Source: Patescibacteria group bacterium UBA5147
GTDB lineage: Bacteria; Patescibacteriota; Saccharimonadia; UBA4664
Length of the DNA: 64,000 nt
Assembly (NCBI GenBank): GCA_002415345.1
Contig: DHXV01000002.1
Location: 76,155 to 140,154 of the forward strand
Direction: 5' to 3'
Shown: positions 47,596 through 62,558 of the stretch, one piece after another
Layout: every line of letters begins with the position of its first letter
How positions within the stretch are numbered: the first letter of the stretch is position 1
The notes under the pieces: model-generated
What the model saw: the letters and a program-made list of their open reading frames with translations, nothing else
Told to the model about the DNA's origin: nothing
Databases searched by the model: none
Made by a program: the position numbers and the translations under genes

Positions 47596-49065
47596 ATGTC
47601 AAGTACACGGATCCAAATTGCGCCAGCTTCGCGTGATGCCACCCGTGGCAATATGCGCGTTCCGGCTGGTCTGTTTCATGCCTTCGCTCATCTTCTCCAT
47701 AAATGGCGGCCCGTAGTCTTTATCATTCTTTTTCTCGGAATTGTCGTGGCACCGTTCTACGTTGTCACGCAAGCCTTAGAGAGTGGTGACGGCTGTTCCG
47801 CGGTCAGCGCAACGCCAAAACGTGACGCTGAGGCAACCGTTTCAAAACCTGGCCCTCTTCCGAGTGTCGGATTCGAAAGCTATCCCGGTAATCCTAACCA
47901 GGTATTGGCAAAGTCTCGCTGCGTCTTCGACTCCAACCTGGAGCGCGTGGGCGTGGCTCAGTCAACCGCGCTGTCCAGTTCGGAGAGTGCCATCAATGAC
48001 TTTGCAGCCAGCAAGATGGGAAGCCTATCGGTTTTTTCGTTCCTGCTTTTCATCTTCGCAGCTGTTTCCTGTCTCTATTACTGGGTCAACCGGAAAGGTT
48101 CGCCTGATCGGAAGAAGGCGAGTAGTGATGATCTGTCCATGCGCGGCCGGCTCTTTGTCGGACCTGTCGCCTGGTTGATTATGGGGCTTTCGTTGCTCTA
48201 TTCGCAGAATGCCCTTGTCCTGCTGAACGCTCCGAGCCACGGCATAGTAGCCCTTAGCAGTGTGGGTTCCCTGTCGAACGACAACCTGTCCAACTACACC
48301 TACCGCACAGCAGAGCTGAACCCTTTTGGTAGCGTGATGTACGGCTACGACCGTCAGTCCGAGTTCAAAGCCTCCGCCCCACATATCGATGCCTACCTCA
48401 GTGGGAGGCCGGTGAGTCAGGTGGAGTATAAGAATTATGCCGCGCTCTATAACCAGCGGGTCATAGCCGACGATAAGGTCGGATCCATGCAGAACACCGC
48501 CAAAGCGGTCGAACGCTTTGGAACCAGCCTGAACACCACTTCAGGAATCTTGGCTCAGGCCGTGAATATCCTGCGGTCGGCTTTTTTGGCGATTTTTGTA
48601 GGCAGCTTCTTTATCTTGGTTGCCCTGTGCGCGGTCCGACCCGTGAGAGCCAGGCGTTACTTCAAGCGCTGGTTCTTTGCCAACGCGGCACCGTTTGGCC
48701 TGCTAATTCTCAGTCTCATTGTCCTGTTGGGCGTCAACTGGGGAGGCATCTACGCGGTATCCTTTGCTACAGCCCCCGAAATGTGGGGAGTGGTGTGGGG
48801 TTGGACGTTAGCCGCCTACATAGTTCAAGTGATCGGGTATCTCGTGCCTTGGTTGCTGGTCTATTCGGTTTACCGGTACTACCGGCACACCTCCGGATGG
48901 ATGCTTCAGTCGATGGCCACATCCGACGACAGGTGGGTAATGGAAGTAGGCAACCGGCTCGTTGCGGCGCGCGAACAGCGTGCCATCACGGGCAGACTGC
49001 TTCTCAAAATCCCATATTTCCGCCGTAGGCAACTTACCGCCGCTCGGGTTGGTGGCACACCATGA
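47596..49065 (+). CDS. Polytopic membrane protein (hypothetical) preceding the tandem hydrolase genes
   Basis: 489 aa; at least 7 hydrophobic helices; it ends ...GGTP with TGA overlapping the next ATG, the same junction as the next gene. Confidence 0.45.
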   Translation: MSSTRIQIAPASRDATRGNMRVPAGLFHAFAHLLHKWRPVVFIILFLGIVVAPFYVVTQALESGDGCSAVSATPKRDAEATVSKPGPLPSVGFESYPGNPNQVLAKSRCVFDSNLERVGVAQSTALSSSESAINDFAASKMGSLSVFSFLLFIFAAVSCLYYWVNRKGSPDRKKASSDDLSMRGRLFVGPVAWLIMGLSLLYSQNALVLLNAPSHGIVALSSVGSLSNDNLSNYTYRTAELNPFGSVMYGYDRQSEFKASAPHIDAYLSGRPVSQVEYKNYAALYNQRVIADDKVGSMQNTAKAVERFGTSLNTTSGILAQAVNILRSAFLAIFVGSFFILVALCAVRPVRARRYFKRWFFANAAPFGLLILSLIVLLGVNWGGIYAVSFATAPEMWGVVWGWTLAAYIVQVIGYLVPWLLVYSVYRYYRHTSGWMLQSMATSDDRWVMEVGNRLVAAREQRAITGRLLLKIPYFRRRQLTAARVGGTP

Positions 49066-49291
49066 CCACGACGACTGCCGCACCTCAAGATACGGTGCGG
49101 CAGTCGGGCCAGAGTGGAACCGGAAGCAAAGGTAATCTTTTCGTTGCCGCTGCTTTGCTACTGGCTCTGGCCTTTCTCACGGGGCTGAACCCTGCTAATG
49201 CCCGTGCTGCAACATGGGACGCGGTTCAGTCCATCGCCAAACTCGACGGCAGCGGTCTATCCAAGACCATTGTCAAGGCGGGGGACAAGGC
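49051..49291 (+). repeat. Direct repeat copy 1 (241 bp) spanning gene junction plus N-terminal module
   Basis: Identical to 49806..50046 except one substitution (A 49113 vs G 49868). Confidence 0.85.
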
Positions 49292-49820
49292 TAAGAGCCA
49301 GGCAGAGAGCAAAGGGCTCGTGAACCCCGTTACCAAGGCCGGATACCGGTATGTGGCGATGGATAGTTCATGGGTTGGTAGCTTACCTAACGGGTGCGCG
49401 AACAAAGCTCATCCCTACATCGGCATGATGAATAATTCAGCCAAACAGGCTGACGTCGATGTCCGGCTCGTTGGGTCACTAACTTGCCACGAGTCCGGTT
49501 TTTCTCCAACCGTCTGTTCAGGCGCTGGGGCCTGCGGACTCGATCAGTTAATGCCTGCAACAGCCCGAGGGCTCGGAGTAACAAACCGGAGCGACCCCCA
49601 ACAGTCCCTGAATGGTGGCGCACGCTACCTGAGGGGTCAGTTGGATCGATTCGGCAAATTATCCTTGGCTTTGGCTGCGTATAATGCCGGATCCAATGCA
49701 GTTCTCGGTTATGAGAAAGGTGTAAAGGTCCGCGGTGTCGGTGTTCCGCCCTACGGTGAGACGATCAGTTACGTCGCAAGGATCCAAAACACCTACCGGG
49801 CAACCGGTGGCACACCATGA
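49062..49820 (+). CDS. Membrane-anchored lytic transglycosylase (SLT domain)
   Basis: 252 aa; signal-anchor LFVAAALLLALAFLTGL; SLT motifs CHESGF (catalytic Glu), GLDQLMPATA, AYNAGSNAV. Confidence 0.65.
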   Translation: MTTTTAAPQDTVRQSGQSGTGSKGNLFVAAALLLALAFLTGLNPANARAATWDAVQSIAKLDGSGLSKTIVKAGDKAKSQAESKGLVNPVTKAGYRYVAMDSSWVGSLPNGCANKAHPYIGMMNNSAKQADVDVRLVGSLTCHESGFSPTVCSGAGACGLDQLMPATARGLGVTNRSDPQQSLNGGARYLRGQLDRFGKLSLALAAYNAGSNAVLGYEKGVKVRGVGVPPYGETISYVARIQNTYRATGGTP

Positions 49821-50046
49821 CCACGACGACTGCCGCACCTCAAGATACGGTGCGGCAGTCGGGCCAGGGTGGAACCGGAAGCAAAGGTAATCTTTTCGTT
49901 GCCGCTGCTTTGCTACTGGCTCTGGCCTTTCTCACGGGGCTGAACCCTGCTAATGCCCGTGCTGCAACATGGGACGCGGTTCAGTCCATCGCCAAACTCG
50001 ACGGCAGCGGTCTATCCAAGACCATTGTCAAGGCGGGGGACAAGGC
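49806..50046 (+). repeat. Direct repeat copy 2 (241 bp)
   Basis: See copy 1; both start with GGTGGCACACCATGACCACGACG. Confidence 0.85.
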
Positions 50047-50590
50047 CCAGCAGAAGGCGCAGTCCCAAGGTTTGGTTAACCCGTCAGACAATTCTGTTTC
50101 ACGCCGCGGACAAGCGTTAGTTGCCAGTGGGAGCGTAACAACCATCTCGATTGGCAAATGCAGGCCGCTACTCGATCTCAAGTCGGGTAAAATGTTCCCC
50201 CAGGCTATTACGTATCTGGAGAAACTGGCAAAAGCGGGTTTCACAGTTGAGATTAGTTGCATCTTTACCGGGCACACCTGGAACGTAGCGGGTACCAACC
50301 GAACCTCACTCCACTTCAAGGGGCAGGCGTTCGATATCACCCGCGTCAACGGTCAGCCGATCTGCGATGTCATGGTCGGTTCAGTCGACAGTCATCACGA
50401 CACACGTCACTGTTCAAAGCCGTCCGCTGCTAGCAAGAAACTCACTCACTGGCTCTTCGCCCAAGCTAACAGCCAACTTCCCTTTGAGGTTGGTGGGCCG
50501 TTTAGTACAGGGAGTCGTGACAAATCCAACGGTGGTCGGTTTTTCACCAACACCGGTCATCAGACCCATTTCCATTTCGGCTTCAAGTAG
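49817..50590 (+). CDS. Membrane-anchored peptidase M15-like peptidoglycan hydrolase
   Basis: 257 aa; first ~76 aa are nearly identical to the previous gene; C-terminal SLHFKGQAFDI (SxHxxGxAxD) and HQTHFHF (HxH) fit zinc D,D-peptidase M15. Confidence 0.55.
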   Translation: MTTTTAAPQDTVRQSGQGGTGSKGNLFVAAALLLALAFLTGLNPANARAATWDAVQSIAKLDGSGLSKTIVKAGDKAQQKAQSQGLVNPSDNSVSRRGQALVASGSVTTISIGKCRPLLDLKSGKMFPQAITYLEKLAKAGFTVEISCIFTGHTWNVAGTNRTSLHFKGQAFDITRVNGQPICDVMVGSVDSHHDTRHCSKPSAASKKLTHWLFAQANSQLPFEVGGPFSTGSRDKSNGGRFFTNTGHQTHFHFGFK

Positions 50591-50651: not shown

Positions 50652-50686
50652 TGGGCCCGCTCGATTTCGATCGAGCGGGCCCCTTT
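50652..50686 (+). terminator. Intrinsic terminator after the hydrolase pair
   Basis: GGGCCCGCTCGAT-ttcg-ATCGAGCGGGCCC followed by CTTTTCATTT. Confidence 0.8.
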
Positions 50687-50808: not shown

Positions 50809-50837
50809 TTGACAGTAGCTGACAACATGCCTAGAAT
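50809..50837 (+). promoter_or_regulatory. Strong sigma70-like promoter (TTGACA-17-TAGAAT) for the T4SS-like cluster
   Basis: Consensus -35 with a near-consensus -10, embedded in a very AT-rich upstream tract; ~175 nt leader to the ATG at 51014. Confidence 0.5.
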
Positions 50838-51013: not shown

Positions 51014-53173
51014 ATGACAATGCTAGCGGGTGACTCAGCGGATGAGGCAAATCGACCTCGACCACGTACGCTTCAAGGAAGAATCAACCAGGCCATCGGA
51101 CTGACAAAAGTCTTCTCCCTCGAGGAGATGACCGAATTTCACTCCGAAGCCATCCTGTTTGCGCTGCAACAGCGCGAAGAGGCGGCCAGGAACGAGCTCG
51201 GTAGTGCGACCTTTAACGGGCCGGCTGTCGTTGCGACTTTTTCGCCCAAGGGCGGGCCGGGTAAAACGACCATTGGTGCTGGCGAAGCCATCACCTGGAG
51301 TACAGCTCGGCGCCGCGACCGCGCGGTCGTCATCGGAGCCGACTCCAACGCCGGCACACTCAGCGTCAAGATGGGGCAGACAAAGGGTTGGTCACTCCAG
51401 ATGCTTGCCGATAAGCACGACGACATCGACTCCTATGAGAAACTCATCTGGGCCTTCGGGTTCCAGGGCGAGGGTGTCATGGTGGTCGCATCCGACCCGA
51501 GCGCCGAACGCGACAATGAGAACGCCACCGACTTCAAGAAGGTGGTTAATCATCTCTCCACCTATCTCAACGTTTTCAAGATCGACTGTGGAATTGATTT
51601 CAATAATCCGCTCACGCAGTCGGTGCTTGAAGCCACGGATATCCTCGTTCTTGTGACCGATCCCACCCGGGACTGTCTCACGACGATCGACGAACTCGTT
51701 CGCAAGCAGGGTAACGCCCCCATGTTTGGTCCGCTCATGGCAAATGGCATCCTCGTGATCAACAAGGTCAAGGATGACACACCATACCTTGACCGCATCA
51801 TCGCTCGCTACGAGCGGTTCTTCTCTCGGATCCTCATCGTCAACTACGACCGCCAGCTCGACACCGGCGGCGAAATCGTCATGGAGGACCTGGATTACGA
51901 GACCCGCGTCCAGTTCACCGAGCTGTCGGCGGCAATCGCCGGTTGTCTCTCGCGCGTTCGGCCACAGCGGCCGGAGGACCAGCTTGAGGTACCGGAGATT
52001 GACTCGAACCTTGCATGGCTTACCGCTCCGGAGACGCAGCCCTATGGCCTCGCTCCGCTCGACGGTGAGGATTTTGACTGGAGTCAGAAAAAGACTCCGG
52101 TGACCGTTCACGCACAGGTCACGTCAGCACAGCTCCACAACCCCGTCTTGGTTGGTGACCCTGGTCACCACTCAATGCGTTTCGGCGGAGTTGTGAGGAT
52201 CACCAAGGCAGCAACCATTGCCGCCATCGGTGCGGCCGGGCTTGGGGGAATATTCCCAACGGTCGCCATTGCCGACTCTGGCAGCGGACAGCCACTCTCA
52301 TCGGTTTCGGACGGTGCATCGAATGACGGAGCCTCGACAAGTGTCGAGACGCCGCCGTCTGTGGCCCCCGAGGCTCCAGCAGCTCCTGCGGGTGATACCG
52401 CTGTCAAGGTGCAAAGCGGCGCTGGTGTCACGGCAGATGTCGGTGCTTCGACGAGCGATGTTCCTACAGCGCAGGTTGAAGTACCACCAACGGCCTCTCC
52501 CGTGATTACGGATCCACAGCCTGCAGCAATAGGCGAGAGCCAACGGCATGGCAATCAGGCAACCACGGGCAAGCACAGAAGGCCCATTCCAACAGTTCAA
52601 CCTGAAGCACAGGTTTCAACTAGCCCGCCCCAACAGGTGCAGGCTGAAAGCCCTCGACCAGTAGTTGCCGATCAGGCAGCACCTCAAGTGGTTACTTCAC
52701 ATCCATCAGCCGCCTCACATCCGTCAACGACGGTTACGGGCACAACAGCCGATGGAGTCTCTCCGAAGTCACCGGTGTACCAAGCACCTGTTCAGGCGCA
52801 ACGTATCCATAACGAGGCTCAAGCCGCACCTCGCGTCTACTCGTCAACCGGCAAGCCGCAGGCATCCGCCAATGTGGCCGTTAGTTCCACCGAGAAATCG
52901 GCGACCGGCATATCGCAGTCCAACGAGCCAGCCAGCTCCGCGGCACCCGAATCACCGATGGTCGGCACTGTCTTCGTTACCAACGGGGACTCTCTTTGGA
53001 AAATTGCCGAAGATGCGCTTACGGTGCATCTGAGCAGGCAGCCTACGAATCATGAGATCGACCTCTACTGGCACCAGATTTATCAGGTGCCGGCAAACCA
53101 TGAGGTTATTGGCGGAAACGACGATTTGATCCTTCCCGGACAACGTCTGGAGCTGCCGGCTTTCCATTCCTGA
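51014..53173 (+). CDS. ParA/MinD-like P-loop ATPase - TM helix - Pro/Ser/Thr-rich linker - C-terminal LysM domain protein
   Basis: 719 aa; deviant Walker A FSPKGGPGKTT; one TM (ITKAATIAAIGAAGLGGIFPTVAIA) around residue 400; ~250-aa low-complexity linker; C-terminal LysM (GDSLWKIAE...IYQVPANHEVIGGNDDLILPGQRLELP). Confidence 0.55.
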   Translation: MTMLAGDSADEANRPRPRTLQGRINQAIGLTKVFSLEEMTEFHSEAILFALQQREEAARNELGSATFNGPAVVATFSPKGGPGKTTIGAGEAITWSTARRRDRAVVIGADSNAGTLSVKMGQTKGWSLQMLADKHDDIDSYEKLIWAFGFQGEGVMVVASDPSAERDNENATDFKKVVNHLSTYLNVFKIDCGIDFNNPLTQSVLEATDILVLVTDPTRDCLTTIDELVRKQGNAPMFGPLMANGILVINKVKDDTPYLDRIIARYERFFSRILIVNYDRQLDTGGEIVMEDLDYETRVQFTELSAAIAGCLSRVRPQRPEDQLEVPEIDSNLAWLTAPETQPYGLAPLDGEDFDWSQKKTPVTVHAQVTSAQLHNPVLVGDPGHHSMRFGGVVRITKAATIAAIGAAGLGGIFPTVAIADSGSGQPLSSVSDGASNDGASTSVETPPSVAPEAPAAPAGDTAVKVQSGAGVTADVGASTSDVPTAQVEVPPTASPVITDPQPAAIGESQRHGNQATTGKHRRPIPTVQPEAQVSTSPPQQVQAESPRPVVADQAAPQVVTSHPSAASHPSTTVTGTTADGVSPKSPVYQAPVQAQRIHNEAQAAPRVYSSTGKPQASANVAVSSTEKSATGISQSNEPASSAAPESPMVGTVFVTNGDSLWKIAEDALTVHLSRQPTNHEIDLYWHQIYQVPANHEVIGGNDDLILPGQRLELPAFHS

Positions 53174-53184
53174 CAACCGCTTTT

Positions 53185-53218
53185 ATCCCTCCGGGTCCAG
53201 CAATGGACCCGGAGGGAT
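53185..53218 (+). terminator. 15-bp perfect hairpin after the ParA-LysM gene
   Basis: ATCCCTCCGGGTCCA-gcaa-TGGACCCGGAGGGAT, 12 nt after the stop; no clean U-tract. Confidence 0.5.
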
Positions 53219-53351
53219 ACCAACTTTATCCGACTCAAGTACAGTCTAGTTTTTGAGCCGGGTCGTGTTGAAAGATACTGGCCCCTATTGCAGTAAATCT
53301 GCAAGTTCTTTTCCAATTGAATCGATACAACAACGAGAAGAGGTTATTCTT

Positions 53352-54380
53352 ATGCGCTTTCCAAGCCGTAAGCGCTTCGCGCCCAGAAATGGGGGGAGCC
53401 CTCAGTTTCCAACTTCCAAGCTCCGCGCCGAAGGCGCGAGCGTTTGGATGGCCATCCGACTGCATCACATACTTCGCTACTTGCTAGCTGGCATCATTGG
53501 TGCTGCTCTTGTGGGTACGCCACTGCTTGTTAATGCAGCCCAGATACGTAGCGATAACACCAAAACAGCTAGTGAAAACGCTGTGAGGGACTCGCGTCTA
53601 AATAGTCGCATCGATGCATTTGCAGCTAGTTGCGAGGGCAAAGGAACGTGTAAAACGTTCCCGTTCACGCGAGCGTTGCAGGTCACACAGCTCTACGCCA
53701 TTACCTGCTTTAACTACAGTGCTCAGAGCCCCACCGACGATCAGCCCATTCGGCTGAAGGCGGTGCCGGGCGCGGGCGCAAGCTGTGGGTGGGGCGGGGA
53801 CGGAAGCTCGACAACCGTCGCCGTGGTGCCGGACTCCAGCTACCAGCTGGGTGTTCCAACCGCTGACGGAAAGGCACAGGACGCCTCCGTTGGTATTACC
53901 GGTGTCAGCGTTCTGCTGGCCGGCCAACAGGACGTTCTGAGTTACGTTGTTCCGCTCAAGACGACGCCATCCGGTGTCGTGATTGCATCACCAGGAGCAT
54001 TTTACTCCACACCACCGAACACACTCATACGCAGTTGTTCGCCCGACACCGTCTTCAGTGATAGTGAGGGAATTCAGAAGCGTCTCCAGCAAATGGAGGC
54101 TGGTCGTGCTCGCACACCCAACATTGATCCTCGCGACTACCTGATGCCGGGGCGTACCATCGGTACGTTCGGTAAGAGTGTCACCAAGATTACTGTGACG
54201 GGAGTTACTGTCTGCCAGGGTTCGTCCGACAACGTACGAACCGTGGTTTCGCAAGAACGTTTCGACGGCCCCACTCTGGGGAGCCACTTTGACTTTTCGC
54301 TCGGGTACGTCCTGCAGCTGATTGATAATAAGTGGTATGTACTCAACTGGGGCCCCGTCTTGAACCAGAGCTCCCTCTAG
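53352..54380 (+). CDS. Membrane-anchored/secreted protein (possible VirB8/TcpC-like NTF2-fold component)
   Basis: Start ATG 53352 with GAGAAGAGG RBS; hydrophobic anchor LLAGIIGAALVGTPLLVNAA; no enzyme motif. Any VirB8 link rests on position and architecture only. Confidence 0.35.
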   Translation: MRFPSRKRFAPRNGGSPQFPTSKLRAEGASVWMAIRLHHILRYLLAGIIGAALVGTPLLVNAAQIRSDNTKTASENAVRDSRLNSRIDAFAASCEGKGTCKTFPFTRALQVTQLYAITCFNYSAQSPTDDQPIRLKAVPGAGASCGWGGDGSSTTVAVVPDSSYQLGVPTADGKAQDASVGITGVSVLLAGQQDVLSYVVPLKTTPSGVVIASPGAFYSTPPNTLIRSCSPDTVFSDSEGIQKRLQQMEAGRARTPNIDPRDYLMPGRTIGTFGKSVTKITVTGVTVCQGSSDNVRTVVSQERFDGPTLGSHFDFSLGYVLQLIDNKWYVLNWGPVLNQSSL

Positions 54381-54398
54381 TCGCCGAAGGAGGCGAAC

Positions 54399-54857
54399 AT
54401 GGGTTACAACGACCCGTCGCTCCCACCGGCGACAACGGAATATGGTTACGGAGTGAACTACAAGGACATTTTTGCTGAGTATCGTCACATCCCTTGGCTC
54501 AATGGGGGATATACCACTTTTCAACTCATGGTCTTTGGTGCTATTCCGGTGTTTCTTGCCGGCGGCCTGACACTTATTGGTTATGTCGTGAGCTTGAAGT
54601 CTGTTTATGCGGGTGGCACGTTCTACGTCATCGCACCGGCCAGCTTCATACTTGGCATGTACCTCAGCGCGCAGCTGGCAATAAGTGTAGGTAAGACCGA
54701 ACGGCATGGAAATACACAAGCACAATACTTGTGGGACAAACTGAAGTACCACTTTGCCTCGCGACACATCGTCAACGGGCATCCGCATTACGACAGCCTG
54801 CATCGCAGGCAGTCAGTTCTTTCCACTCATTCCTCCAAGGAGGCGGCACCACGATGA
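54399..54857 (+). CDS. VirB3-like small membrane protein (2 TM)
   Basis: 152 aa; two TM helices; AAGGAGG RBS; overlaps the start of the VirB4-like ATPase gene, as VirB3/PrgI-like genes do. Confidence 0.35.
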   Translation: MGYNDPSLPPATTEYGYGVNYKDIFAEYRHIPWLNGGYTTFQLMVFGAIPVFLAGGLTLIGYVVSLKSVYAGGTFYVIAPASFILGMYLSAQLAISVGKTERHGNTQAQYLWDKLKYHFASRHIVNGHPHYDSLHRRQSVLSTHSSKEAAPR

Positions 54858-57409
54858 AGTTTTCAAGTCCATTCGGACGAACGAAGTTGTCAGGCAAGCC
54901 GCCCCTCGGGGTACTTGCCGTCGATCGAATCGCCAGCCTAGTGACGCTATTCGGAACCTCATCGCCCATTCGGGATATCGACGGGTGTTTCCTGAAAAGC
55001 GCCAAGGGGCAATGGGAGGCCTGGTTCCGGATCGATCTGATCCGGGCCTATGACCTACTCTCAAGCGGCGAAAAGATGGGCGCATTTGAACGTCACCTCA
55101 AGCTAGTCGAAGAACTGGTCGGAAAAGTAGTTCACCTCGAAATTCTCGGCGTTCCTGTCGGGTATGAAGAGCGTTACCGCCGTTTCCGGCTTCACGAGCT
55201 CGACGATAAGAACCCGCTTCGAGGTGATCCAGAATGGGAGAAGTCTCGCCATGACCGGGTTCATGACATGGCGACCTGGCTACAGGAGAACGGCGACTTC
55301 GAGTCCCGAGCCTACCTTGGCATTTCTGTTTCGCCGTCGCCAGTCAATCGTCTATCGGCAGAGGCTTTCGCGCAGCTGCCGTTGGACGAACGATTCGGAG
55401 TAAGTTACTACCAGAACAGCCACCTCATCCCCGAGGCAGCACGTCTGCAGTTGTTAATGAAGGCCGCTTGGGGTGGCAAAGTCGACCCCTTGGACCGCGA
55501 CGAACTGGATGTCCTGCTGTCTCTTACTAACTGGCCGGGGCAACCGCAGATATTTGCGCCTGATCATACGGTCGGAGCTATCGGTGGGAGAGACACAGAA
55601 ATCAGCCACTATGGCAGCAGTAACTACAAAGTGGCGGCGCCGGGGGTACTTGAGTTTGAATATCTCGGCACCCCGTCCTTCGCCAGCTTCGTTCCATTGG
55701 TAATTGCAACTGCCCGGGAGTTTTTGCCAGAGACCGAAGAGGAGTTCGCCTTCTGTACCGACGGTGCGGGCAGGCGGCTTCGAATCAGTTGGCGATTCAA
55801 AGTGTGGAAGGGTCTGGATCTTCTCAATTTTGCCCGTAAAACTGCTCGACGGAACGCTAACCATCAGGTATACCTCGGTGAAAACGAGGGACAAATGGTG
55901 GATCTCGATACGGCTGTGGCATCAGCTCAGTCATTCTACAAGCACCTGCTCGATGACGGCATCGCCATCGTCGGCCCGTGCGTGTTGGTGGTAACCGGAG
56001 ATAGCGTCAAATCGGTACAGCAGGAAGTCCGAAATCAGGCCAACAGCCTGAAGAGGAAGGCTCACCTGGTAATCGATGCCGAAGAGTATCAGCAGGCGCT
56101 TTACGAGCACTGCCGTCCAGGTTCAGCCAGGTATCTCAACCGTTTCGTGCAGTATCTCATCCCAGAGGCCTTTGCTCGAGGTATGGCGTTCGTAACGTCA
56201 GCGCCACGGACGATGGGGCCCGATTTACTGGGATGGGTACGTGGGCGAGAGGGCGTCCCTTATACAGGGGGATACGACTTGGCAACTCTCCTTCCCGGCA
56301 CCAACGTATCGCCCACGAATTTGTGGTGCGGTCCTTCGGGAGGCGGGAAAACCACTTCAATCACCGATCAGTTGATTGCGCTCGTCGAGCGGGCAGGGTA
56401 TGTCGGCTTCATTTTCGAGCTTCTCAAAGACGACACCCGTCGTCTACTCGGACGCACGCCCTTAGGCATCACCGTCAGGGCATTTACTCTCGAGAATCAC
56501 CCTGGCCTGCTCAATCCGGCCGGATTCGCTACGATTCCTTCCGAGCGCGTGGATTGCATGAGCGACTTTTTGAAAGCCTGCATCGGCACCATTCGCTGGC
56601 GGGATGAATTTGAAGATCCTTTACGGAGCGCCTGTAAAACGGCAATTCGTGAGGCCGATGAAGCGGGCAACATGAGACCCGATCTCTACCGTGTAGTTGA
56701 GCTCCTCGACGGAGTTAAACTCATCGGATCGCTACTGGAGAAGGTAGCCGGCGACCAAAAAGTTGCTCCGGTTTTCTTTTCCAATCACTACGACCAATCG
56801 CTGATTGATACAATGACCCAGCCGGGTCTGAATATCATCGGCCAGGAGCATTTCAGTATCCCCGATCGTGACAACTTCGCTGATTACACACCGCAGAACT
56901 GGCTGGCACTGGCCGGACTCGACATCGTATCCATGCTTGCACGCAAGGTCGCACATGACCGAGATATTCGCGTGGCGATGGCAACGGTCGAGTTCTGGCG
57001 CACTGCCAGGCTCTCCCGGGGCGCAACCGAAGCGGCCTACATGGGGCGTGTCGGAAGAAGCCTGAATTGTGCTTCCGGCTACGACACTCAATTCCCAGAC
57101 GATGTTGATGAAACCCTGACCAAGCAGGTAACGACTAAGCTGGCATTCTCCGTCATAGGGGCGGAGGAGGTAGAGAAGTCGCTCCATCTGGTTAGTCAGG
57201 AGATTACTCCCAAGTCCATCAGAATGTTTGAGACGATGGCAATGGATACCGAAGACGGAACGGATATCAACAAGGGGACGCACATCGTGCAACTCCCAAC
57301 TCTGGAGACACTCCGTGTCCAGAGCCTGCGCTGGTATTTGCCTGCGGGCAGGACCACCGCATCAGATCTGCCGGAACAAACTCCGGCACCAATCCCCAAG
57401 GAGGGATGA
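54854..57409 (+). CDS. VirB4/TrbE/CagE-family type IV secretion ATPase-like protein
   Basis: Start ATG 54854 with AAGGAGG RBS (ORF-track start 54731 overlaps the previous gene); ~851 aa; Walker A GPSGGGKTT around residue 495; size and context fit VirB4. Confidence 0.5.
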   Translation: MKFSSPFGRTKLSGKPPLGVLAVDRIASLVTLFGTSSPIRDIDGCFLKSAKGQWEAWFRIDLIRAYDLLSSGEKMGAFERHLKLVEELVGKVVHLEILGVPVGYEERYRRFRLHELDDKNPLRGDPEWEKSRHDRVHDMATWLQENGDFESRAYLGISVSPSPVNRLSAEAFAQLPLDERFGVSYYQNSHLIPEAARLQLLMKAAWGGKVDPLDRDELDVLLSLTNWPGQPQIFAPDHTVGAIGGRDTEISHYGSSNYKVAAPGVLEFEYLGTPSFASFVPLVIATAREFLPETEEEFAFCTDGAGRRLRISWRFKVWKGLDLLNFARKTARRNANHQVYLGENEGQMVDLDTAVASAQSFYKHLLDDGIAIVGPCVLVVTGDSVKSVQQEVRNQANSLKRKAHLVIDAEEYQQALYEHCRPGSARYLNRFVQYLIPEAFARGMAFVTSAPRTMGPDLLGWVRGREGVPYTGGYDLATLLPGTNVSPTNLWCGPSGGGKTTSITDQLIALVERAGYVGFIFELLKDDTRRLLGRTPLGITVRAFTLENHPGLLNPAGFATIPSERVDCMSDFLKACIGTIRWRDEFEDPLRSACKTAIREADEAGNMRPDLYRVVELLDGVKLIGSLLEKVAGDQKVAPVFFSNHYDQSLIDTMTQPGLNIIGQEHFSIPDRDNFADYTPQNWLALAGLDIVSMLARKVAHDRDIRVAMATVEFWRTARLSRGATEAAYMGRVGRSLNCASGYDTQFPDDVDETLTKQVTTKLAFSVIGAEEVEKSLHLVSQEITPKSIRMFETMAMDTEDGTDINKGTHIVQLPTLETLRVQSLRWYLPAGRTTASDLPEQTPAPIPKEG

Positions 57410-57645
57410 AAATGGTCAAAAACTCTGTGTTGGCCGCGATCGGTTTGATGATCCTCGTGATTGTTCTGATCGTGATGGTGATCGGTGCAAAATTCTTTTT
57501 CAAGGATCAACAGCACCGAATTGGCGGCACGGTGGTTAACGCCATCTTGCTTGTCGGCTTCGGGATTGTCGGATCTGGTGCGGGGATCGGGGTTCTTGCA
57601 AAAGGTCTCGGCGCCGACTTGAAGATCCCTGGCCTCGGCGGTTAG
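57406..57645 (+). CDS. Small hydrophobic protein (2 TM; possible pilin/VirB2-like or accessory subunit)
   Basis: 79 aa; AAGGAGG RBS; ATGA-coupled to the VirB4-like gene; Gly-rich C-terminus. Confidence 0.35.
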   Translation: MKMVKNSVLAAIGLMILVIVLIVMVIGAKFFFKDQQHRIGGTVVNAILLVGFGIVGSGAGIGVLAKGLGADLKIPGLGG

Positions 57646-57666
57646 TTCGTATCGATTCAACGTCTC

Positions 57667-57701
57667 ACCCCACTCCGGCCGCCATGTGCGGTCGGAGTGG
57701 G
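57667..57701 (+). terminator. 15-bp hairpin (one G-U) after the small TM gene; no U-tract
   Basis: CCCCACTCCGGCCGC-catgt-GCGGTCGGAGTGGGG. Confidence 0.4.
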
Positions 57702-57817
57702 GGCTCAACCAGAGTTCTTATTCTTGTTAATAAGGCCTGTGGTTGAGTCGCTCCGCGTCTCAAGTACCTGTTTACATTCAGACATCGTCTCAAACGATAT
57801 CAAAGGAGCTGATCCGC

Positions 57818-59929
57818 ATGGCCTCCGTACTTAAGTGCCGGGCCATAGCCCGGATCCTCATGACGGCAGTTTTGATGCTAATGTTGTCCTGTTTTGCTTC
57901 AAACGCTCAAGCGGCTACCAACATTACGGGTCCAACCGAGCTCAGTATTACCGCCGCCAAGGCTGATACCTCTACCGTTCAAGTATCATGGAAGCCACCA
58001 CTCGACTTTCTCGGACAGATTACGGCGTACTCCCTTCGGCTAGATGGCAATCAAGTTGCGCAGTTCAAAGTGATAAACGGTCTGCTTCCGAGCACCTATG
58101 TCATTCCGGCCGCGCCGTTCAATCCTGGTGGTGCCGTTACGGTAGTAGCTTTGTCCGGTACGGCGCAAGTTGGCGATCCGTCTAACACGGTAATCCTCAA
58201 CAAGAGTGCGTCTCCGGCGTCACAACCAACTGCCACCCAAGCCACTCCGTCCTCGTCATACCAGGACAATGGGTACGGCGGTGCTCTTCAGTCTCCGCCG
58301 TACGCCGACAAAAATCAGCCGTCACCTCTTGAGGTGTATGGCGCTGGCAGCGGCATCCGTAGCCTCATTACCACCAACAATGACGGCACCCAATGGATCT
58401 CGGCGGGCATGAACGGAACGGCTGGAGCAATTTGGTCGATGGCGGTCCTCCTGCAAATCGCAGGTAGCGCGATCTTCGGCTGGGCGCTCATCAAAAGCAT
58501 TTACGGTGCTCTCATCGGTGCGATCCTCGCACTCCTGAACAGCTTCAACGTGAGCCCTATCTTCGGTGACATCCTGCTCATAGCGGTGGCGGTTACCATG
58601 GCTTGGGGCGCAATCATGATGATTCGGGACGAAGATCGTATCCGTAAGGGTATCGGCACTGCGTTATTGGTGCTCCTCGCAGGTCTCACATTCTTTGGGA
58701 ATGCAGCGTCTTTGGTTCCTCAGGTAGTTGAGATGCCTGTTACGGTCACCCAGTTCGCAATGGCAGAGGTATCCAAATGGGAGGTTCCCGGCGACAAGCC
58801 GGAGGACTATAACCTTAGTGTCAAGCCGACCTACAATGGCAATGAGTTGGAGCAATCCATCCGGCGCTATCTGAACCAAAACTGGCTTCAGACTACTTAC
58901 CCGGCCTATTGCCAGCTGAACTTCGGAAGCGTTGCGTGGTCAACAACCCACATCGTGCCGAACGACAAAGACTTGCCTAAGTATAAGGACCTCACCTTCT
59001 GCGAGTACCTGTTGAAGGCGCAGACGGAGAACAACACCACTGCCCTCGACAAACTGCGCAGCAATGACAGCGCAGGAGGCGTTGTGGGGGCAGCTACTGG
59101 CGGTCTGCTAGGCCACCGTGTGGGATATGTAGAGGCGGCAAGCCCGGAAATCTGGAATAACTACCAAGCCAGTGCTCCGGAAGTGTCGTCGTTGCGAATG
59201 TTGTTCAGCATCGTTGCTTTGGGCTCAAACTTCATTGACTTCGTAATCAAGGCAGGTCTGGGATTGTTTATTTCCCTGACGGTTTTGCTGCTTGGAGTCA
59301 GTACCATCATGCTGGGTTTCATGCTCTTGGCCGCAGTGGCTCCGCCACTTCTCGATTACCTTTTTCAGCACCTCAAAGAGATGCTGGCGAGGACTTGGAA
59401 GCCGGGTCTGGTCATGGCGTTCTTCATGATCGTGGACAAGATCGTATCCATTCTCTTCACCGCCAGCGGTGTTCGCGGATGGCTAATTGAGACAATCCTC
59501 AGGGGCATCACCATGGTGGTGTTGCTCGGGTGGGGGCTCTTTAAGATCTTTAGGGGGCAACGTTCCCACCGCACAATACGCGAGCCCGGAGCGCCGACTC
59601 CGCCGGAGTACTATGACCGGCCAAGCACTCCCGCTTCACCAGGTTATACGGTTCCTCCGTCCCAGCCAGCCCCGGCTGCGTCTCGGCCGGTTCAGGATTG
59701 GGTGAAGGTTCCAAGTTCGCGGCCTACTGCACCGCCGCCGGCCGCCATCGGCGGTCCACGTGTCGTGCAGGGCCGGGTAATCAGCAGTCGGGATTACCCG
59801 GCAATTGGTTCGTCTGTTTCTCCGCGTGGTAGTGCCCAAGCATTACCAAGGTCCCTGCCTCCTGCACCAAGCCGACCCAGCTTAGGGTCGCCACCTGCAA
59901 AGGCGCTTCCGGCGGCTCCTCGCCGCTAA
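57818..59929 (+). CDS. VirB6/TrbL-like polytopic membrane protein with N-terminal FN3-like ectodomain and Pro-rich C-terminal tail
   Basis: Start ATG 57818 with AAAGGAG RBS; signal peptide; ~180-aa extracellular segment; at least 7 TM helices; C-terminal ~130 aa Pro/Ser/Ala-rich. Confidence 0.45.
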   Translation: MASVLKCRAIARILMTAVLMLMLSCFASNAQAATNITGPTELSITAAKADTSTVQVSWKPPLDFLGQITAYSLRLDGNQVAQFKVINGLLPSTYVIPAAPFNPGGAVTVVALSGTAQVGDPSNTVILNKSASPASQPTATQATPSSSYQDNGYGGALQSPPYADKNQPSPLEVYGAGSGIRSLITTNNDGTQWISAGMNGTAGAIWSMAVLLQIAGSAIFGWALIKSIYGALIGAILALLNSFNVSPIFGDILLIAVAVTMAWGAIMMIRDEDRIRKGIGTALLVLLAGLTFFGNAASLVPQVVEMPVTVTQFAMAEVSKWEVPGDKPEDYNLSVKPTYNGNELEQSIRRYLNQNWLQTTYPAYCQLNFGSVAWSTTHIVPNDKDLPKYKDLTFCEYLLKAQTENNTTALDKLRSNDSAGGVVGAATGGLLGHRVGYVEAASPEIWNNYQASAPEVSSLRMLFSIVALGSNFIDFVIKAGLGLFISLTVLLLGVSTIMLGFMLLAAVAPPLLDYLFQHLKEMLARTWKPGLVMAFFMIVDKIVSILFTASGVRGWLIETILRGITMVVLLGWGLFKIFRGQRSHRTIREPGAPTPPEYYDRPSTPASPGYTVPPSQPAPAASRPVQDWVKVPSSRPTAPPPAAIGGPRVVQGRVISSRDYPAIGSSVSPRGSAQALPRSLPPAPSRPSLGSPPAKALPAAPRR

Positions 59930-59941
59930 GTTCGTCCGTTC

Positions 59942-59975
59942 GCTCCACTATGCGTCGCAAGACGCATAGTGGAGC
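59942..59975 (+). terminator. 15-bp perfect hairpin after the VirB6-like gene; no U-tract
   Basis: GCTCCACTATGCGTC-gcaa-GACGCATAGTGGAGC; same GCAA tetraloop as the 53185 hairpin. Confidence 0.4.
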
Positions 59976-60052
59976 CCTAACCCGAGTATTCAATATTGGT
60001 TGAGTCATCGGGCTGGGAAATACCCAGCGATCCTTCACATCTAGGAGCACTA

Positions 60053-60670
60053 ATGACTCATGTCAGACGGCTCCTTATTGGAGCCTGCCTCGTTGCGATA
60101 GTGGCATTTGCTGCCTGGAGAGGAAATCAATTCCAGACAGCACAAGTTACTCCTCGGCAGTCGACGGCATCCAAGGCAAATACGCAAATGCTTCCCCCGG
60201 ATGCAATGTCTCCAGTGCCACTTCCAACGGCGACAAGCGAGGACTATCAACCGGTTGACTGCTCGCGCGTCATCTCCTCAAGTCAGTTGGGGGATATCTA
60301 TTCGGCCGCCAAACTTTACGCAGGCTTCCCATCGGCGAAGCCCGCGAAGCAGGATGCACTTTCGCTAGCCCGATACGTTCTCCCAGGTCCGTTTCTCAAG
60401 AACACTCAAAGCTCATGGTCGAACTCTGGTGCGCCCATTCGCCGTTCAACCGGCGTTAAGGTAATTGAGTGTTCCGCCGGAGACCAATCCAGTCTGATCC
60501 AGCTCCTGTCCGTCATCCTGAGCGTAAACTCCGTCGATACAAGCGGATATGCGAGGATGGATACGGTTTCCTACGACATGTCAGTCGTGCGTACGGCGGG
60601 CCGATATTTAGTTGTCTCCATCGTGCCTAAGGGCATGTATGGAGGTGGCGCAAATGCGGCCCCCAACTAA
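60053..60670 (+). CDS. Membrane-anchored extracytoplasmic protein (hypothetical T4SS accessory)
   Basis: Start ATG 60053 with AGGAG RBS; N-terminal TM LLIGACLVAIVAFAAW; ~180-aa soluble domain. Confidence 0.4.
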   Translation: MTHVRRLLIGACLVAIVAFAAWRGNQFQTAQVTPRQSTASKANTQMLPPDAMSPVPLPTATSEDYQPVDCSRVISSSQLGDIYSAAKLYAGFPSAKPAKQDALSLARYVLPGPFLKNTQSSWSNSGAPIRRSTGVKVIECSAGDQSSLIQLLSVILSVNSVDTSGYARMDTVSYDMSVVRTAGRYLVVSIVPKGMYGGGANAAPN

Positions 60671-61916
60671 TGCTCGGACGAACAACAAACGTCGTTTCGT
60701 CCGTAACACCGTCATTGCCTCCGTTCAAGCAGCTGCGGGTAATCCCGCTCCGCTTCTTAAACTGCTTCGACCGGTAATCGTAATTGGGTTGGCGGTAACG
60801 CTAGGCCTTTCAGCGGCTATCGGTGCGGCATTCGGGGTTGGGATGTCGCTCGCACACGCAGGGAGTGCGGCTAGCGCGAATAGTCAAAGCGGCGCTGCGA
60901 ACTGTCAAACAAAGACTGTTCGAACCGGCGCCCTCCCAACCAGCCTTCCGGTGGTATACCGCCAGATCTTTGTGAAGGCAGCAGCCTCTAAAGGCGCCGA
61001 CGTCAACCTGCTCGCGACCATATTCTGGGTCGAGAACGGTCAACGTTATCCCGATCCTCCATCACCGTATGGTTTGGGGCTTGGGTGGCCCGTATCCGGG
61101 CCAGGTGCCATGGGGCCATTCCAATTCATGCCGGGAACCTGGACAGGTTACGGCGTCGATGGGAATAGTGACGGTGTCGCTGATCCCAATGACCTGACGG
61201 ATGCCGCGTATTCTTCAGCCGCCTATCTTGTGAGTCTTGGCGGCAAGGCCGGGACACCTTTGGGGGATCCAGCAAATCCTCATGCTGCCAGCACGCTTGT
61301 AAAGGTAATGGCATCTTACAATGCCGGCCCGGCCGGCAACTTTGGCAACCCGGAGACTCAACGCTACATTCAACTTGGCGCGGCGCATTACCTGGATCTT
61401 ACCAGTGATCCGCTAGCTAACCCTGGAGCCACTTCGGTGGTGCAAATCTGCACGAATCAGGCACCGTCTGCAGCGCCTGCCCTATCAGTATCTTTACCAA
61501 CGGGCAAATGCGTTGCAGGTATAGACAAGGGTACGGCTGCTACATTTAATGCCAACACCATAACTCTGTGTGAAGTACGCGGAATATTGGTGAACGCATC
61601 GATTGCAAAGCAGATTGACTCTATGGTGGCCGCAGCCGCTAAAGACGGCATCACGCTTGCTGGTAGTGGGTTCCGCAGCTACAGGGAACAGGTAAGATTA
61701 CGAATCCAACATCACTGCGGTGATGTCTACACCGCGTCTTCAAACACCTGCTCGCCACCGACGGCAGTTCCAGGAACGTCGATGCACGAGCAAGGACTGG
61801 CGGTGGACTACAAGCTGTCTGCCGGTGTCTTCAATTGGCTTCAGCAGCACGCTGGCATCTACGGTTTCAAGAATCTGCCATCAGAAACGTGGCATTGGTC
61901 AGTCAACGGGGGCTAG
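60654..61916 (+). CDS. Bifunctional peptidoglycan hydrolase: SLT lytic transglycosylase + VanY/M15B D,D-carboxypeptidase domains (VirB1-like role)
   Basis: Start ATG 60654 with GGAGG RBS, overlapping the upstream stop; N-terminal TM; SLT motifs VENGQ...GPFQFMPGTW...AAYSSAAYL; C-terminal SGFRSYREQ, SMHEQGLAVDY, ETWHW fit VanY/M15B. Confidence 0.65.
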   Translation: MRPPTNARTNNKRRFVRNTVIASVQAAAGNPAPLLKLLRPVIVIGLAVTLGLSAAIGAAFGVGMSLAHAGSAASANSQSGAANCQTKTVRTGALPTSLPVVYRQIFVKAAASKGADVNLLATIFWVENGQRYPDPPSPYGLGLGWPVSGPGAMGPFQFMPGTWTGYGVDGNSDGVADPNDLTDAAYSSAAYLVSLGGKAGTPLGDPANPHAASTLVKVMASYNAGPAGNFGNPETQRYIQLGAAHYLDLTSDPLANPGATSVVQICTNQAPSAAPALSVSLPTGKCVAGIDKGTAATFNANTITLCEVRGILVNASIAKQIDSMVAAAAKDGITLAGSGFRSYREQVRLRIQHHCGDVYTASSNTCSPPTAVPGTSMHEQGLAVDYKLSAGVFNWLQQHAGIYGFKNLPSETWHWSVNGG

Positions 61917-61936
61917 AGCAATCTAGCACTCACTCG

Positions 61937-61983
61937 GGCGTCCGACTCTCTCCTACGATGGAGCAGGGTCGGACGCCTTTTTA
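61937..61983 (+). terminator. Intrinsic terminator after the T4SS-like cluster
   Basis: GGCGTCCGAC-(21 nt)-GTCGGACGCC followed by TTTTTA. Confidence 0.6.
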
Positions 61984-62001: not shown

Positions 62002-62030
62002 CAAAGAAAATTGGGGCGCCCGACAGAATC
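62002..62030 (-). terminator. 12-bp perfect hairpin terminator for the minus-strand gene 62055..62558
   Basis: TGGGGCGCCCGA-cagaa-TCGGGCGCCCCA; a T-rich tract follows on the minus strand. Confidence 0.6.
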
Positions 62031-62054
62031 GGGCGCCCCACTTGGGCGAAGCCG

Positions 62055-62558
62055 CTAGAAGCGGACAATGAGGAAATCTCCTGACGAATCGGAGGTAACG
62101 GTAACGCTGGCGCCACGGTCCTTGGCCCAGGTTATGAAGCGGCTGGCATACCCATCCGGGGATGTAACGCCCTGGCCATTGACCGAAATGATGTCAACTT
62201 CAGAGGTCTTGAATTCCCGGATACCTAGCTGGTAATATCTTGCCGCATCTTGCAGCATAGATACTATGGGCTCCCCGATGCAAGCCGTAACGGCTTCGTT
62301 GGCGGCGATATTCGGGACAGTGTGTCCCGCCGAGGCAAGTAGGTTTGGGTCCGCGTGAACGCAGGAAGCCTGTTGTCCCGAATTTTTTGTGTTTGTAGCG
62401 CTCGGAGAACCTTTCGAATCGAAAATAAGTGCGCTGACGGCGGCCAAAATGATAATGGCGACCGTAGCTAAGATTATTATCGTTCGTCGACTGGGCGGAG
62501 TAGTAAAGAGGTGCTGCTGACCGGGCGGTAGGCTCGGCTTCCGTATGTCGAGAGACAT
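62055..62558 (-). CDS. Membrane-anchored extracytoplasmic protein (hypothetical)
   Basis: 167 aa; N-terminal TM IIILATVAIIILAAVSALIF. Confidence 0.4.
   Translation of the reverse strand: MSLDIRKPSLPPGQQHLFTTPPSRRTIIILATVAIIILAAVSALIFDSKGSPSATNTKNSGQQASCVHADPNLLASAGHTVPNIAANEAVTACIGEPIVSMLQDAARYYQLGIREFKTSEVDIISVNGQGVTSPDGYASRFITWAKDRGASVTVTSDSSGDFLIVRF

Follow-up and report, generated by a model that had tools for sequence, protein, structure and literature searches.

The gene cluster described here, a compact type IV secretion system (T4SS)-like locus, lies in a 64,000-nucleotide stretch of the genome of Patescibacteria group bacterium UBA5147 (contig DHXV01000002.1, positions 76,155 to 140,154 of the forward strand; hereafter the window). 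Its core, at 51014-61916, consists of eight co-directional genes, all on the forward strand (g4 to g11 in Table 1), and not nine as counted in a preliminary description of the same DNA. The lead gene, g4, encodes a ParA/MinD-type ATPase head that is joined, through a single transmembrane helix and a long linker, to a C-terminal LysM domain. It is followed by genes for a bitopic protein, a small membrane protein, a VirB4-type ATPase, further membrane and anchored proteins and a peptidoglycan hydrolase. The assignments given below are based on open reading frames (ORFs) and their translations, Pfam, NCBIfam, hhalign, tblastn and phmmer comparisons, hydropathy, and AlphaFold2 (AF2) models searched with Foldseek. 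The order of the genes is kept in 5 other contigs (L001, L002, L005, L006 and L007), in which VirB4 is 44-83% identical to that of the window, and the pairwise ratios of nonsynonymous to synonymous substitution rates (dN/dS) of every gene, the eight as well as three upstream genes, fall between 0.07 and 0.38, which indicates purifying selection. Given this synteny and these ratios, the cluster is not a chance pattern of ORFs. Word-indexed protein searches recovered only 5 relatives of VirB4, 2 of the ParA head and 3 full-length ones of the lead gene, so that the lineage appears to be sparsely sampled; a scan of genome contigs found a single related locus, in a Candidatus Saccharimonadia bacterium metagenome-assembled genome (MAG).

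Table 1. Genes and other features of the T4SS region (window coordinates)
Feature	Position	Strand	Description
g1	47596-49065	+	489-aa polytopic membrane protein, ~6 hydrophobic segments; first gene of upstream unit
g2	49062-49820	+	252-aa membrane-anchored SLT lytic transglycosylase; Pfam SLT E 2.6e-21; ATGA overlap with g1
g3	49817-50590	+	257-aa anchored protein; Peptidase_M15_3 E 0.055, below threshold
Terminator-like hairpin	50653-50682	+	13 bp, 10 GC, T-rich tail; ends the g1-g3 unit and separates it from the operon
Sigma-70-like promoter	50809-50837	+	TTGACA-17-TAGAAT, 11/12 consensus matches; upstream of lead gene; consensus match only
g4 (lead gene)	51014-53173	+	719 aa; ParA head, transmembrane helix, linker, LysM
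g4, head	51014-52048	+	residues 1-345; MinD/ParA-type ATPase; intact deviant Walker A PKGGPGKTT (residues 78-86)
g4, transmembrane helix	52199-52273	+	single, ~residues 396-420; from hydropathy
g4, linker	52274-52954	+	~230 aa, Pro/Ser/Thr/Ala/Val-rich, extracytoplasmic, fast-evolving
g4, LysM	52955-53173	+	C-terminal ~65 residues and stop codon; actinobacterial-like variant with insertion
g5	53352-54380	+	342 aa; bitopic, N-terminal transmembrane helix, large extracytoplasmic domain
g6	54399-54857	+	152 aa; two transmembrane segments; stop overlaps VirB4 start (ATGA)
g7	54854-57409	+	851 aa; VirB4-type ATPase, unsplit; Walker A GPSGGGKTT
g8	57406-57645	+	79 aa; two transmembrane helices; ATGA-coupled to VirB4
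g9	57818-59929	+	703 aa; polytopic; VirB6-like by position and topology
g10	60053-60670	+	205 aa; N-terminal anchor, extracytoplasmic
g11	60639-61916	+	425 aa; anchored SLT_2 and VanY/M15 peptidoglycan hydrolase
Palindromic hairpin	62012-62040		perfect, 13-bp, GC-rich; between g11 and convergent ORF 62055-62558 (-); likely end of operon

The best characterized component of the cluster is the ATPase encoded by g7. Pfam AAA_10 matches it above the cut-off (E 1.4e-9, 37.9 bits against 27.5), NCBIfam TcpF matches it in part, and CagE_TrbE_VirB does not match. In profile-to-sequence hhalign comparisons, g7 aligns with the VirB4 of a Nocardiopsis plasmid at 98.1% (589 co-linear columns), with Orf16 of Tn916 at 96.4% and with TcpF of pCW3 at 91.9%; the best plasmid matches by tblastn are Tn916-like Orf16 proteins (27.5% identity, E 1e-13) and actinobacterial plasmid ATPases. 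The Nocardiopsis VirB4 itself contains AAA_10 at 1e-67 and follows genes of the TcpC and TcpE families. By sequence comparison, g7 is thus a VirB4-type ATPase of the monoderm class, and the preliminary description, which had listed a VirB4-like ATPase of ~851 aa with this Walker A motif, is vindicated by the above-threshold domain match and the alignments with three monoderm VirB4 proteins.

The last gene, g11, is similarly well defined. Pfam SLT_2 (E 5.9e-11) and VanY (E 8.1e-11) both score above their cut-offs, in agreement with the earlier proposal of a fused SLT and VanY/M15 hydrolase, and hhalign against the SLT protein of the Nocardiopsis plasmid gives 62.6%. The protein is an analogue of VirB1, CwlT and TcpG with two predicted activities, those of a lytic transglycosylase and a peptidase.

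The proteins that would form the membrane part of the apparatus are more divergent, and VirB3 and VirB6 are proposed here from weak sequence signals combined with topology and position. Pfam PrgI (E 0.0077, 17.2 bits, cut-off 27) and TcpE (E 0.042) match g6 below threshold, and hhalign against single TcpE and Orf17 sequences yields less than 1%. Its location is that of Tn916 Orf17 and pCW3 TcpE, and the two transmembrane helices and the ATGA overlap with the VirB4 gene fit a VirB3-like protein. Of the VirB3-like assignment made previously, the two helices and the overlap are clear, and the family call depends on the sub-threshold PrgI and TcpE matches. The g9 protein has a signal peptide, an fn3-like ectodomain, approximately 4+4 transmembrane helices flanking a conserved loop that contains Cys, and a Pro-rich tail that ends in a conserved AP-RR motif; the fn3 match is below threshold (E 7e-4), yet it recurs in 5/5 orthologues. 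No Pfam TrbL/VirB6 match was obtained in any of the 5 orthologues at E<=10, and tblastn found no match in plasmids. Comparison of g9 with a four-sequence profile of actinobacterial VirB6-like proteins gave 62% (E 7.5e-5) over 74 columns located inside the Pfam TrbL region of that profile, and g9 follows VirB4 as do Orf15 of Tn916 and the VirB6-like protein of Nonomuraea. The VirB6-like label, which failed the Pfam TrbL test, is drawn from polytopic topology, position after VirB4 and this profile match.

A VirB8-like component was sought in g5 and g10: neither has a Pfam match, and hhalign against TcpC proteins remained below 2%. The g5 gene occupies the position of TcpC/ConB (VirB8-like); it has no Pfam match at E<=10, its hhalign score against TcpC proteins is below 1%, and it is conserved (74-76% identity, 46% in L001). 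The g10 protein is conserved as well (69-82% identity, 27% in L001), g8 is variable across lineages (39-95% identity), and neither has a family match in Pfam or hhalign. A VirB2 or pilin assignment for g8 was dropped, Pfam TrbC reaching an E value of only 0.29. Single-sequence hhalign comparisons of g1, g5, g6, g8 and g10 with Tn916, pCW3, Nocardiopsis and Rhodococcus proteins gave no signal.

Taken together, VirB4, the hydrolase and the synteny place the cluster among monoderm-type T4SS. Identity as a Tad or ESX system was rejected, no TadA/CpaF or EccC-type ATPase being present. The gene order of the window (bitopic protein, two-helix protein, VirB4, polytopic protein of ~700 aa, wall hydrolase) is paralleled by Tn916 Orf17-16-15-14, and the conB-cwlT order of the integrative and conjugative element ICEBs1 matches it too. 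The tcpC-D-E-F-G-H array of pCW3 contains the same parts, although there the hydrolase TcpG precedes the polytopic TcpH, unlike in the window. Common to the window, Tn916 and pCW3 are an unsplit VirB4 of ~815-850 aa, a small two-helix protein before it, a polytopic protein of ~700-830 aa and a bifunctional hydrolase after it, an upstream bitopic protein, and the lack of outer-membrane parts. There are also clear differences. The hydrolase of the window combines SLT with VanY/M15, whereas that of Tn916 is annotated as a lysozyme/C40-peptidase and TcpG of pCW3 has a glucosaminidase domain; the accessory proteins share no detectable similarity; the window has the additional ParA-transmembrane-LysM lead gene; and Tn916 and pCW3 encode an FtsK-like coupling protein (Orf21/TcpA) and a relaxase (MobT/TcpM), neither of which is found near the window cluster.

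The composite architecture of the lead protein, noticed already in the preliminary description, is borne out by phmmer, profiles searched against the PDB, the AF2 model with Foldseek, and hydropathy. An exhaustive phmmer search of 1.84 billion representatives with the head (E<=1e-3) returned 855 matches, the best non-self ones at 27-33% identity. Ten top matches were scanned, and Pfam CbiA was detected in 10/10 and AAA_31 in most; the named top relatives are 'MinD/ParA family' proteins of Actinomycetota or Gordonia. A family profile of the head matches MinD in the PDB at 1.1e-15, with FleN and Soj also matched; the single head sequence scores below the CbiA threshold (16 bits against a cut-off of 25.4). 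The AF2 model of the head (pLDDT 83.7, pTM 0.80) has as its top Foldseek match the ParA-family structure 3ea0 (E 1.4e-10, target TM-score 0.78), followed by FleN, ParA2, Soj, FlhG and MinD. The sequence profile and the predicted fold concur that the head is a genuine MinD/ParA ATPase. At the other end of the protein, a 14-sequence LysM profile retrieves a PDB list led by LysM proteins (E 2.6e-8, positions 5-63 of 65), the single sequence falling just below the Pfam LysM cut-off (20.4 against 20.9 bits). The LysM region is 57-69% identical even to L001, and dN/dS of the C-terminal part of the gene is 0.36-0.38. Relatives of this LysM variant were considered as a lead to function and set aside: in Actinobacteria they are located near secA, not in secretion clusters.

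The complete ParA-transmembrane-LysM architecture occurs in none of the 150 best representative matches, and a profile search with the linker deleted recovered three full-length relatives only. What is rare is the fusion to the transmembrane helix and LysM, and not the partnership of a ParA protein with a T4SS. Two Nocardiopsis plasmids (NZ_CP074136 and NZ_CP099838) encode TcpC, TcpE, VirB4, a TrbL/VirB6-like protein, an SLT hydrolase and a MinD/ParA protein, the latter directly upstream of the VirB6-like gene, which the SLT gene follows. Compared with the window head, this MinD/ParA protein shows 26% identity (E 2e-11) and differs in being a separate protein with a C-terminal ATPase domain, in which no transmembrane helix or LysM was found. 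The Nocardiopsis genes form two divergent operons, are located on plasmids, and are only 23-29% identical to their counterparts in the window. All 65 plasmid matches of the head are actinobacterial, and they include an EspI-like MinD/ParA gene inside a plasmid ESX locus. The head thus appears to belong to an actinobacterial subfamily that is found beside T4SS and ESX secretion loci.

EspI of ESX-1 resembles the window head in being a MinD/ParA-fold ATPase that is encoded together with an envelope-spanning secretion machine. The same holds for TadZ/CpaE of Tad pili and for VirC1 of the Agrobacterium T4SS. The window ATPase is N-terminal and membrane-tethered, unlike these three, none of which, to our knowledge, carries an extracellular LysM domain joined to the ATPase by a membrane helix.

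Two neighbouring MinD/ParA genes related to the head, at ~28% identity, are present in the Gordonia pseudamarae chromosome (L010/L011, 10001-13660). This identity is too low to imply recent transfer. These relatives were rejected as T4SS-linked: they are chromosomal and located near cca and NUDIX genes, not in a secretion locus. Another Gordonia species is reportedly a host of Saccharibacteria. A Rhodococcus cluster of the SCO6880 type beside a related ParA gene was likewise put aside as a different system, the proteins of which do not match the window VirB4.

Comparison of the related operons reveals an exchange of the head. Between the window and L007, every protein is 72-95% identical except for the lead gene product, and the upstream intergenic DNA, including the DNA flanking the promoter, is 75-81% identical. 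DNA identity drops to background at the start codon (~51014) and recovers at ~52190, at the beginning of the transmembrane helix, so that the swapped segment is 51014-52190 in the window versus 1812-~2985 in L007 and 3386-~4560 in L005. In this place L005, L007 and the distant L001 carry another head; these heads are 29% identical to one another (E 4e-44), give no BLAST alignment with the window head, and align with the ParA family at 97.7% in hhalign. Their P-loop is two residues shorter and contains no lysines (FGIEPKQTT, FGLNPTDCT), and they are predicted to be pseudo-ATPases. The new observation here is that related operons have a P-loop-dead ParA-like head that is exchanged exactly between the start codon and the transmembrane helix.

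The window and L002 share the intact head (93% identity), which has the lowest dN/dS of that comparison (0.076) and a synonymous divergence (dS) of 0.56, against 0.86-2.7 in the neighbouring genes. For its downstream genes, the nearer relative of the window is L007, not L002. The outgroup L001 carries a degenerate head; most simply read, this type would be the ancestral one in the clade, into which the intact head would have come, and within which it would have spread, through recombination. Such an origin is plausible given that Saccharibacteria are naturally competent (PMC10633639).

The layout of the transcription units bears on whether the lead gene belongs with the secretion genes at all. 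Most starts are preceded by Shine-Dalgarno sites of the GGAGG/AAGGAGG type, in line with the strong sites described previously, but those at 53352 (g5) and 60639 (g11) are weak or unclear; the reported ATGA coupling is present at 54854 (g6/g7) and 57406 (g7/g8). A rival explanation holds that the ParA-transmembrane-LysM protein is a positioning factor for cell division or wall growth that merely adjoins the T4SS operon. MinD/ParA proteins commonly position divisomes, LysM proteins are common in septal wall remodelling, related ParA proteins occur outside secretion loci, and a 178-nt gap with a weak hairpin follows the lead gene. Nevertheless, the lead gene is located directly upstream of the T4SS genes in 5/5 relatives that reach that far, including L001 with its 44% VirB4 identity; the only strong promoter-like site of the operon is upstream of the lead gene, and a strong terminator precedes that gene; and a MinD/ParA gene directly precedes the genes for the VirB6-like and SLT proteins in the two Nocardiopsis T4SS plasmids. 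We consider the division factor improbable.

The system is probably larger than the operon. Three genes (g1-g3, 47596-50590) form a separate transcription unit just upstream of it, and although conserved, they were left out of the cluster as first delimited. The g1 protein has no Pfam or NCBIfam family match; in L005 (76% identity) and L001 (22%) an orthologue is found ahead of the T4SS operon. The g2 gene is conserved in L005 and L001, and orthologues of g3 were found in L005, L007 and L001. The unit spans 2612-5609 in L001 and 29-3029 in L005, with ATGA overlaps within it; even in L001, with only 44% VirB4 identity, it immediately precedes the T4SS operon. A direct repeat of 277 nt (49051-49327 and 49806-50082, 94% identical) gives g2 (SLT) and g3 (M15-like) a common N-terminal anchor module of ~85 residues. 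Together, g2 and g3 are a split counterpart of the fused SLT and VanY hydrolase at 60639-61916.

Genes for DNA transfer were not detected near the cluster. Pfam scans covered every ORF of at least 400 aa and most ORFs of 250-400 aa in the window. Neither a coupling protein (VirD4 or TcpA/FtsK-like) nor relaxase or integrase domains turned up in the scanned ORFs, in the 10 kb downstream (from contig L003) or in the flanks of the related loci, including L001 and L002, and the window itself showed no oriT-like or flanking repeats. The Pfam and repeat scans thus agree with the preliminary description, which had seen no coupling ATPase, relaxase or oriT-like repeat. Its conclusion that the cluster is a secretion or contact apparatus and not a conjugative element is favored by these absences, but it goes beyond what they establish, as a type IV coupling protein (T4CP) may be encoded at a distance. 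It is also less novel than it seemed. Monoderm T4SS that lack a relaxase and a nearby T4CP are nearly universal in Patescibacteria and essential in Southlakia (PMC12102498, PMC10633639), and with such systems already published, the class is not new.

Patescibacterial T4SS have been described in Southlakia epibionticum (SEML1_0006-0019), in TM7x and in about 2,400 genomes (PMC10633639, PMC12102498). They have an ancestry in monoderm conjugation, mostly lack a relaxase, and have T4CP genes located far from virB4 (PMC12102498); the Southlakia cluster, in which neither a coupling protein nor a relaxase can be recognised, is essential for growth as an epibiont (PMC10633639). The window cluster shares with these systems the setting at the level of the phylum, the monoderm (MPF-FATA-related) ancestry, the chromosomal location, a putative PrgI-type VirB3, a putative VirB6-like protein, wall hydrolases, the absence of a recognisable relaxase or adjacent coupling protein, and a proposed role in the epibiotic lifestyle (PMC10633639, PMC12102498). 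It differs from them in several respects. Southlakia has a VirB4 of 612 aa and a separate TrsD-like protein, whereas the VirB4 of the window is unsplit at 851 aa. Canonical patescibacterial T4SS include arrays of VirB2-like pilins and are often near dnaA, whereas the window cluster has no pilin array and housekeeping neighbours; the Southlakia cluster is close to recF, where the numbering of the genome begins, from which its location in the origin region is deduced. These indirect signs suggest that the window cluster may lie apart from the canonical Patescibacteria-clade T4SS. As judged from the sequences, it would differ from the published systems in its unsplit VirB4, its actinobacterial-like accessory set, the rare ParA-transmembrane-LysM fusion, and the swap of active and dead heads.

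Could the cluster be a functional conjugative T4SS, with the coupling protein and the relaxase encoded elsewhere in the genome? Its closest characterized relatives (Tn916, pCW3 and the actinobacterial plasmids) are conjugation machines, and of the thousands of VirD4-like T4CP homologues in Patescibacteria only 148 are near virB4 (PMC12102498); of this genome, only ~74 kb was inspected. Relaxases, however, are infrequent in the phylum, with 109 counted in 103 genomes out of about 3,000 (PMC12102498), the T4CP homologue of Southlakia is non-essential whereas its T4SS genes are essential (PMC12102498), the chromosomal context of the window cluster is stable across lineages, and the window and the 10 kb downstream yielded no integrase, oriT-like repeat, T4CP or relaxase. 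A conjugative function accordingly appears unlikely.

Still less credible, in our view, is a decaying remnant of an integrative conjugative element that came from an actinobacterial host and no longer functions as a machine. The best outside relatives of VirB4, of the ParA head and of the LysM variant are all in Actinobacteria, to which the known hosts of Saccharibacteria belong (PMC12102498), and the conjugation-specific parts are missing. Against decay, none of the eight genes or of g1-g3 is disrupted, and dN/dS is 0.07-0.38; synteny persists down to 44% VirB4 identity with downstream flanks in common; no pseudogenes, integrase or flanking repeats are found; and the identity to actinobacterial proteins is only 23-33%, so that any transfer from Actinobacteria would be ancient.

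The downstream flank speaks to the mode of inheritance. L003, a contig that encodes an identical hydrolase protein, contains in the next 10 kb genes for thioredoxin reductase, a cupin, a class II tRNA synthetase (Pfam tRNA-synt_2), BipA and a histidine kinase. The synthetase is presumably AspRS-like. L002 and L007 have the same Pfam-marked flanks, with genes of similar size in matching order and with the exception of BipA in L007, and in L001 the downstream ORFs match in size and order, a comparison made by size only. Because these flanks are common to L002, L003, L007 and, by ORF sizes, L001, the cluster is taken to be chromosomal and vertically inherited.

We conclude that the region is probably a chromosomal, vertically inherited, minimal monoderm-type T4SS of a probable member of Saccharimonadia, with a role between cell envelopes and not in DNA self-transfer. 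Several points weigh against this conclusion. The assignments of VirB3, VirB6 and VirB8 are sub-threshold or undetected; the VirB4 profile matched nothing meaningful among PDB sequences, and no solved structure was hit; and the AF2 model of g5, built from a shallow six-sequence alignment, has no usable fold (pLDDT 38). The gap of 178 nt with a weak hairpin between the lead gene and g5 makes co-transcription of the two putative, and members of the ParA subfamily of the head are also encoded away from secretion loci, as on the chromosome of Gordonia. Genes for a T4CP or relaxase may be located outside the ~74 kb of the genome inspected.

If the region is such a secretion system, the SLT and M15 hydrolases would open the peptidoglycan for assembly, and the VirB3-like, VirB4 and VirB6-like proteins would form the translocon. 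The apparatus would most likely act in the interaction with the host-cell envelope, through transfer of protein or other cargo or through contact. The lead protein would then be a wall-anchored factor for assembly or for positioning and gating: LysM would fix it to peptidoglycan, and the ParA head, on dimerising with ATP, would bring the VirB4/VirB6 complex to the LysM-marked site or license it there. Analogous roles could be those of TadZ in Tad pili, VirC1 in the Agrobacterium T4SS, and EspI in ESX-1. EspI reportedly lowers ESX-1 secretion when ATP is scarce (PMC11302016). With a P-loop-dead head, the scaffold function alone would remain, and because sister lineages carry such a head, the scaffold role is probably the conserved one and ATP sensing an exchangeable add-on. 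Fully extended, the stalk could measure up to roughly 80 nm and reach beyond the cell's own wall; binding of host peptidoglycan is conceivable.

A bolder version of this scheme, which we put forward tentatively and with more doubt than conviction, is that the lead protein is a trans-envelope organiser of the T4SS that couples nucleotide state to a peptidoglycan-bound LysM tip, possibly on the wall of an actinobacterial host. Its heads would be exchangeable cassettes, active or P-loop-dead, swapped by homologous recombination between the promoter region and the transmembrane helix, and the cluster would represent a second, actinobacterial-like T4SS lineage in Saccharimonadia, separate from the canonical one of Patescibacteria. 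Should this be true, related epibionts could regulate one and the same secretion machine in different ways.

Epibiotic growth of Saccharibacteria requires a T4SS, and the cluster appears to be a compact variant in which the lead gene product would physically link a ParA head to the cell wall. Natural alleles with or without the ATP-binding loop, in otherwise near-identical operons, offer a ready comparison for whether ATP sensing controls secretion. The cluster also links accessory genes of a patescibacterial T4SS with the ParA-family genes beside actinobacterial T4SS and ESX loci, and Actinobacteria include known hosts (PMC12102498). The practical value is limited in that only a handful of metagenomic contigs represent the lineage.

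Outside the T4SS region, the window consists of housekeeping genes, including those for EF-G, EF-Tu, the S10-spc-alpha ribosomal operons, SecY, four tRNAs, MgsA and the delta' subunit of DNA polymerase III; the ribosomal-protein and tRNA cluster is ~17 kb upstream of the T4SS operon. The S5 gene (23629-24126) is followed after 10 nt by that for L15 (24137-24637), with no L30 gene between them. The S5-L15 arrangement without L30 is a trait of the candidate phyla radiation. With a single Saccharimonadia MAG, at 44% identity, as the nearest relative and the L30 gene missing, the organism is probably a candidate phyla radiation bacterium of the episymbiotic type, as suspected at the outset.

Three large proteins that look secreted are encoded between the tRNA cluster and the T4SS region, namely, a 698-aa protein with NHL repeats and a GDSL lipase domain (34971-37067), a 765-aa protein with PD40 beta-propeller repeats (38530-40827), and a 477-aa Thr/Ser/Ala-rich protein of no family on the reverse strand (43344-44777); they may be surface or effector proteins. 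Upstream of S13-S11-S4-RpoA, the sequence at 26346-26439 matches the Rfam family Alpha_RBS with 38.4 bits, the gathering score being 38.

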